Under the pieces are notes generated by a model. That model had not been told where the DNA came from. It saw only the letters and a program-made list of their open reading frames with translations, and searched no databases. A program made the translations under genes and the position numbers. Shown here piece by piece: positions 38,912 to 38,973 of a DNA stretch of 64,000 bases; position 1 is the first letter of the stretch; each line of letters begins with the position of its first letter. The stretch comes from Escherichia coli 042 (lineage in GTDB: Bacteria; Pseudomonadota; Gammaproteobacteria; Enterobacterales; Enterobacteriaceae): NCBI RefSeq assembly GCF_000027125.1, contig NC_017626.1; one strand, written 5' to 3'.

Positions 38912-38973
38912 TGGCGGAGAGAGGGGGATTTGAACCCCCGGTAGAGTTGCCCCTACTCCGGTTTTCGAGACCG
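38912..38973 (-). other. 3' fragment (about 62 nt) of tRNA-Ser(CGA): prophage attachment-site copy
   Basis: Minus strand reads GGTCTCGAAAACCGGAGTAGGGGCAACTCTACCGGGGGTTCAAATCCCCCTCTCTCCGCCA, the anticodon stem through the CCA end of a serU-type tRNA; the 5' half (D-arm) is absent and replaced by AT-rich non-tRNA sequence that runs into phage tail genes. Confidence 0.8.

Follow-up and report, generated by a model that had tools for sequence, protein, structure and literature searches.

The 62 nucleotides at positions 38912-38973 of the window (the whole stretch of Escherichia coli 042 DNA analysed here, 64,000 nucleotides) are very probably the ordinary attR scar of a lambdoid prophage, which, judging from sequence comparison, would have integrated into the tRNA gene serU by site-specific recombination.

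The serU fragment and its chromosomal side

The chromosomal part of the region ends as follows.

37592-38242, + strand: zinT, the chromosomal gene nearest to the prophage (annotated in S1-JOR-02-A, sequence L001, and in NCTC86, sequence L005)
38243-38911: chromosomal intergenic DNA, 669 bp, collinear with the empty-site genome
38912-38973, - strand: displaced 3' 62 nt of the serU tRNA-Ser(CGA) gene, the attR core (prophage convention), a non-functional tRNA, assigned by sequence match

The + strand letters at 38912-38973 are TGGCGGAGAGAGGGGGATTTGAACCCCCGGTAGAGTTGCCCCTACTCCGGTTTTCGAGACCG. Read in reverse complement, they correspond to the last 62 nt, at the 3' end, of the tRNA-Ser(cga) gene (90 nt), and are identical at 62 of 62 positions to serU of the prophage-free strain NCTC86 (L005 3001-3062). 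The fragment runs from tRNA position 28 (the second base of the anticodon stem) through the CGA loop, the long variable arm, the T arm and the 3' strand of the acceptor to CCA, and is devoid of the 5' 28 nt of the gene. No intact tRNA was found by ARAGORN in the whole 64-kb window, and Rfam detected no tRNA at the fragment site at the gathering threshold; a permissive threshold gave there only sub-threshold partial matches, to tRNA-Sec (18.6 bits) and to a plastid antisense family. These results bear out the first-pass annotation of the window, which had recognized only the 3' part, about 62 nt, of a tRNA-Ser(CGA). The window has a single copy of the 62-mer, which did not turn up in any of 100 shuffles, and a terminator scan around the fragment found none. 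The junction between fragment and prophage is common to 143 complete E. coli genomes and therefore is not an artefact of assembly.

To the left of the fragment, msrPQ and zinT are close neighbours. The comparison with an uninfected relative, which had been proposed as a check, reveals an empty zinT-serU-mtfA site; window positions 36000-38973 are collinear with this genome at 99.97% identity, and the homology ends exactly at 38973. The gene yodB is absent between zinT and serU in this lineage (38243-38911), and window homology to the yodB-bearing GenBank entry KU052038 begins only at 38465. Two full-length small RNA genes, DsrA (21521-21607, - strand) and RseX (29943-30032, + strand), are also present in the window, which therefore represents the dsrA-serU region of the E. 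coli chromosome.

The four attachment sites and the place of strand exchange

Predicted attB and attP sequences were assembled from both junctions of the S1-JOR-02-A lysogen. The predicted attB (the left flank of the window, the fragment, the 5' part of the far-end tRNA and mtfA) forms an uninterrupted stretch in 3808 of 5426 complete genomes, many of them at 100% identity and with annotated tRNA-Ser and mtfA, and corresponds to zinT-serU-mtfA in NCTC86. It follows that serU is interrupted in at most about 30% of the genomes. The predicted attP (the integrase-side flank, the 62-nt core and the tail-side flank of the window) is contiguous in two IMG/VR contigs (L006 and L007), and this true attP was located by a pattern scan of viral contigs. 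One of the two contigs is 43.7 kb long, about the size of a phage genome.

The identity between the attP and attB cores ends at position 62 and is broken by polymorphisms at + strand positions 32 and 43 (window 38943 and 38954). The bases at positions 32/43 are as follows.

attB: A/T
displaced fragment: A/T
attP: G/C
rebuilt tRNA: G/C

Host-type bases at both polymorphic positions agree with the earlier proposal that the fragment is the displaced copy of the att site. Since the host and phage bases are sorted among the four sites in the way that a single reciprocal exchange predicts, and the identity ends at position 62, the exchange must fall within one segment.

38955-38973, - strand: 19-bp segment that must hold the strand exchange, in the anticodon stem-loop (core positions 44-62), delimited by the polymorphisms and the end of identity

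In the tRNA, the two polymorphic positions pair with each other in the stem of the variable arm, and the change from A-U to G-C is therefore compensatory. Both versions of serU are called tRNA-Ser(cga) by ARAGORN. The rebuilt serU of S1-JOR-02-A (L001 44788-44877) carries the G-C pair in the variable arm where the native gene (L005 3001-3090) has A-U, and the double change is phage-borne.

The general principle of tDNA integration behind such split-tRNA scars has been stated in the Islander survey, in which anticodon-centred attP is the commoner of two classes with 2083 of 3919 islands (PMC4383910). The serU case shares with the class A tDNA elements (Williams 2002; PMC4383910) the 3' tDNA fragment at one end, the regenerated tRNA beside a tyrosine integrase at the other end (here seen in S1-JOR-02-A and in strain 4/0), the crossover in the anticodon stem-loop, an uninterrupted attB in reference genomes and an attP with a replacement 3' part of the tRNA. 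There is no essential difference; it is a textbook instance with the addition of two polymorphisms that bracket the crossover.

The prophage in the window and its far end

Rightward of the fragment, the prophage genes are all on the - strand with the tail-fibre end first.

38974-39325: non-coding P' arm of the phage att site, which directly adjoins the core in the attP contigs L006 and L007
39326-43021, - strand: distal tail-fibre region (a 95-aa ORF, a tail-fibre-domain protein, a small ORF and a protein with a tail-fibre N-terminal domain)
43080-58833, - strand: Lom, J, tail assembly, tape measure protein, HK97-type head genes and portal of the lambdoid prophage
58981-59706, - strand: C-terminal (nuclease) 241 aa of the prophage TerL, severed from its N-terminal part by a satellite

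This order confirms that phage-type tail genes adjoin the fragment, as had been noted before. The prophage of S1-JOR-02-A matches window positions 36000-59724 in a single alignment at 99.7% identity. Between the fragment and an intact tRNA-Ser(cga) it measures 41,965 bp, and its far end consists of a tyrosine integrase and the rebuilt tRNA-Ser(cga), with mtfA, asnT and the yersiniabactin island lying beyond. The lysogen of strain 4/0 (sequence L008) has the same layout of integrase, tRNA-Ser(cga) and mtfA, 41.9 kb from the fragment. The first-pass annotation had placed the integrase, the rebuilt tRNA and the other att copy beyond 64 kb, and the data of these relatives support this placement, since in the 99.7%-identical lysogens they lie 41.9 kb away from the fragment. 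In 042 the integrase, the rebuilt serU and mtfA would be expected some 57 kb away from the fragment, at around position 96,000 in window numbering, because the satellite adds to the length of the prophage.

No complete E. coli genome in the collection of 5426 has both the serU junction and the junction between terL and the satellite, and we therefore infer the completeness of the 042 prophage from its relatives. The state of its far end in 042 is likewise described here as these relatives would predict it. It is conceivable that the prophage is a truncated remnant, in which the attR is true and the integrase end with the rebuilt tRNA junction has been deleted or rearranged, for example by recombination between prophages. 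The far end lies beyond the window, the two window junctions do not occur together in any complete genome of the collection, and replacements and deletions of serU prophages have been reported in STEC (PMC7067040), all of which would leave room for such an event. On the other hand, the 20.8 kb that are visible (38974-59724) are 99.7% identical to and fully collinear with intact 42-kb prophages, and the satellite junction is clean, site-specific and seen in 33 genomes that keep both halves of terL. We thus consider a truncated remnant unlikely, and a complete prophage is the preferred reading.

The relatives' prophages at serU also have tRNA genes of their own, clustered upstream of lysis. The cluster of S1-JOR-02-A (L001 28749-29059) consists of four tRNAs (Gly, Thr, Lys and Ile by PGAP, the last being Met(CAT) by ARAGORN), and that of strain 4/0 (L008 29417-29666) of two, Arg and Ile.

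The integrase and candidate arm-type sites

The integrase ORF of the serU phages has 341 aa and differs by few substitutions among two lysogens and two attP contigs. It is located at L001 43710-44732 in S1-JOR-02-A and at L008 41672-42694 in 4/0, and is in reverse complement in L006 and L007. PGAP flags the integrase of both lysogens as 'frameshifted', which is not borne out; every copy has an intact ORF of 341 aa.

The protein matches PHROG integrase families, and its residues 1-313 match lambda Int structures, including the arm-binding N-terminal part. In the alignment with residues 1-338 of lambda Int, the first Arg and both His are aligned, and the candidate Tyr is just beyond the end of the alignment. 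A Lys takes the place of the second catalytic Arg of lambda Int (HDLKAK) in four of four copies.

An 11-mer, AATATTCCAAG, occurs as two to three tandem copies on the P arm at the 3' end of the integrase gene, and further copies were found on the P' arm within the window.

39013-39023: candidate arm-type Int site AATATTCCAAG, inverted, 9 of 11 positions, P' arm (motif repeat)
39075-39085: candidate arm-type Int site AATATTCCAAG, direct, P' arm (motif repeat)

We infer from their sequence that these repeats are candidate arm-type Int sites. The system resembles lambda Int and its attP in the homology of the integrase over the whole length with the arm-binding N-domain, in candidate arm-site repeats on both arms and in the gene order of tail fibres, att and int. 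It differs from lambda in the sequence of the integrase (about 23% identity, as measured via the Int of phage ev099), in the residue at the second catalytic Arg, and in the target, which is a 15-bp core in lambda and, in the serU phage, a tRNA gene with identity over a block of 62 bp.

A serU junction in phages with lambda int and attP

The virion genomes of ev099, mEp332 and PhiR70_1 were matched by our first attP query across the core only. They were rejected as the true attP, for alignment showed a block with chromosomal flank. This block is 536 bp long, equivalent to window 38634-39169, and 96-97% identical (ev099, L003 3239-3773; mEp332, L004 2051-2585). Its first 278 bp are flanking chromosome; then come the fragment, which carries the host-type bases, and 196 bp of P' arm sequence.

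The integrase of ev099, which we take to be lambda Int, shares only 23% identity with the serU integrase where the two align, and the lambda attP core is present just beyond it, about 2 kb from the block. Judging from the host-type bases and the nearby lambda int and attP, the serU attR-type junction is a relic in ev099, mEp332 and PhiR70_1. This whole-junction relic in the lambda-Int phages ev099 and mEp332 is a minor new point of our study. As a tentative explanation, the captured block may be a fossil of an aberrant serU excision resembling specialized transduction, which was then spread by mosaic recombination, and it might aid an integrase-free entry into serU; we regard this proposal as somewhat less likely to be right than wrong. 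The lambda gal/bio specialized transducing phages similarly carry chromosomal DNA next to the former attachment site and a hybrid att. The difference is that the junction in ev099 and mEp332 stems from serU and resides in phages that now use lambda int and attP, and that its origin from aberrant excision would be an interpretation of the sequence.

The same virion genomes could suggest that the fragment and part of its left flank are owned by the phage, with the true boundary near 38634 instead of 38912, since 278 bp of the left flank are included in their block. This is very improbable for the window. The same flank runs into intact serU and mtfA in the prophage-free genome, with which 36000-38973 are collinear at 99.97% and which shows no discontinuity at 38634; moreover, the block in ev099 has the host-type A/T and is about 2 kb from a lambda int with the lambda attP core. 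A decayed tRNA pseudogene or an assembly artefact with no tie to phage integration would account for the missing 5' half and nothing else, and its probability is negligible in view of the 62/62 identity to the live serU gene and of the exact breakpoint in 143 complete genomes, which coincides with the end of attP/attB identity. An attR scar accordingly remains our reading of the fragment.

A satellite inside terL

The packaging region of the prophage had been described as rearranged. This description does not hold; the window parts from S1-JOR-02-A at 59724, within the prophage terL, and what follows, a second packaging module unlike that of the prophage, fits a helper-embedded satellite inserted in this gene.

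59711-59717: TTGGTAA, the core shared at the junction of satellite and terL, in the codons for 'NFFTK' of TerL
59718-64000, - strand: one end of the helper-embedded, capsid-forming satellite of about 15.3 kb
60233-61894, - strand: satellite TerL (PHROGs)
61878-62375, - strand: satellite TerS (PHROGs)
62523-62963, - strand: satellite HNH (PHROGs)
62963-63349, - strand: satellite head-tail adaptor (PHROGs)
63255 onward, - strand: satellite portal, C-terminal part, running off the window (PHROGs)

The insertion point 'NFFTK' is between the ATPase and nuclease halves of the prophage TerL, to which the satellite TerL is 32% identical. The uninterrupted terL allele was found in about 1000 genomes and the satellite junction in 33 of the 5426 complete genomes. 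The full satellite, an island of about 15.3 kb between two terL halves (L002 21226-36491; also in L009), encodes a P4-type integrase, regulators, a BRO-N protein, a primase/helicase and SSB, together with a late module of capsid, protease, portal, adaptor, HNH, TerS and TerL; no tail or lysis genes were found in L002 or L009. Its integrase gave a generic PHROG integrase match. The int, regulator and primase genes are co-oriented with the prophage terL. In strain 2014C-3075, the prophage that hosts the satellite is Stx1d-converting.

Helper-embedded PICIs, including a terminase site, were described by Tommasini, Mageeney and Williams 2023 (PMC10111431), and the idea that the arrangement of a satellite in terL might be new was rejected on this account. 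Their signature is a doubled TGTATTGC on both arms of attP, about 81 and about 132 bp from the centre; the integrase clade is 11capE and the terminase site is named A:Terminase_1:245 (PMC10111431). In the window, TGTATTGC is doubled at 59793-59800 and 59805-59812, 82 and 94 bp from the core centre, and on the integrase-side arm of L002 it occurs 140 and 152 bp from the core centre; all copies are co-oriented, and these distances vary with the choice of reference point. A 27-nt pattern for the circular junction of the satellite, scanned for exact matches only, gave none in viral contigs.

The 042 element shares with the published HE-PICIs (PMC10111431) the insertion in a late gene of the prophage (the large terminase), the co-orientation and the doubled TGTATTGC on both arms, whereas it has in addition a full capsid and packaging module like that of cf-PICIs. 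With cf-PICIs it shares, as the full copies in L002 and L009 show, its own capsid, protease, portal, connector, HNH, TerS and TerL as well as the lack of tail and lysis genes, and its length of about 15.3 kb compares with their 10-15 kb. By its sequence, the element at 59718-64000 fits the published helper-embedded PICI class, as a capsid-forming member.

A model of integration and its significance

We propose the following course of events. A temperate lambdoid phage with an HK97-type head and lambda-type tail genes would have entered the serU tRNA-Ser(CGA) gene by means of an attP that brings a copy of the 3' 62 nt of serU. The 341-aa tyrosine integrase, a probable member of the lambda Int family encoded beside attP, would exchange strands within the anticodon stem-loop, and the 7-bp overlap region would be expected inside the 19-bp exchange segment. 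At the integrase end, serU would be rebuilt from the host 5' 28 nt and the phage 3' 62 nt, and at the tail-fibre end the original host 3' 62 nt would be left as a non-functional fragment. This fragment, as the attR core, would be reused at excision. The prophage of 042 would additionally hold the helper-embedded satellite within its terL.

The use of serU by prophages is on record. In GenBank entry KU052038 (Escherichia phage SerU-LTIIb), the same 62 nt are annotated as a tRNA-Ser pseudogene, with the chromosomal flank on one side and genes for side tail fibres on the other, and serU is among the prophage integration loci of STEC O145:H28 (PMC7067040). Therefore the site itself, and not just this kind of site, was already known. 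SerU-LTIIb has in common with the 042 prophage the 62-nt pseudo-tRNA, its host-type sequence and the lambdoid prophage at serU. It differs in the adjoining P' arm, which is only about 90% identical to that of the window, in its LT-IIb toxin genes and in its host, which keeps yodB beside the site.

Integration at serU, class-A tRNA attachment sites and helper-embedded satellites have all been described previously, and no new question is opened here. The value of the split serU site is mostly for annotation. The fragment sets one boundary of the prophage to single-base precision, at 38973/38974, it predicts content beyond the window, and the phage genes of the window can be assigned to the kind of serU prophage that occurs in ST131-like strains. 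If the captured block is such a fossil, it might give ev099-type phages about 340 bp of homology for entering serU without their integrase. For the host, lysogeny at serU rewrites one base pair in the variable arm of the tRNA.
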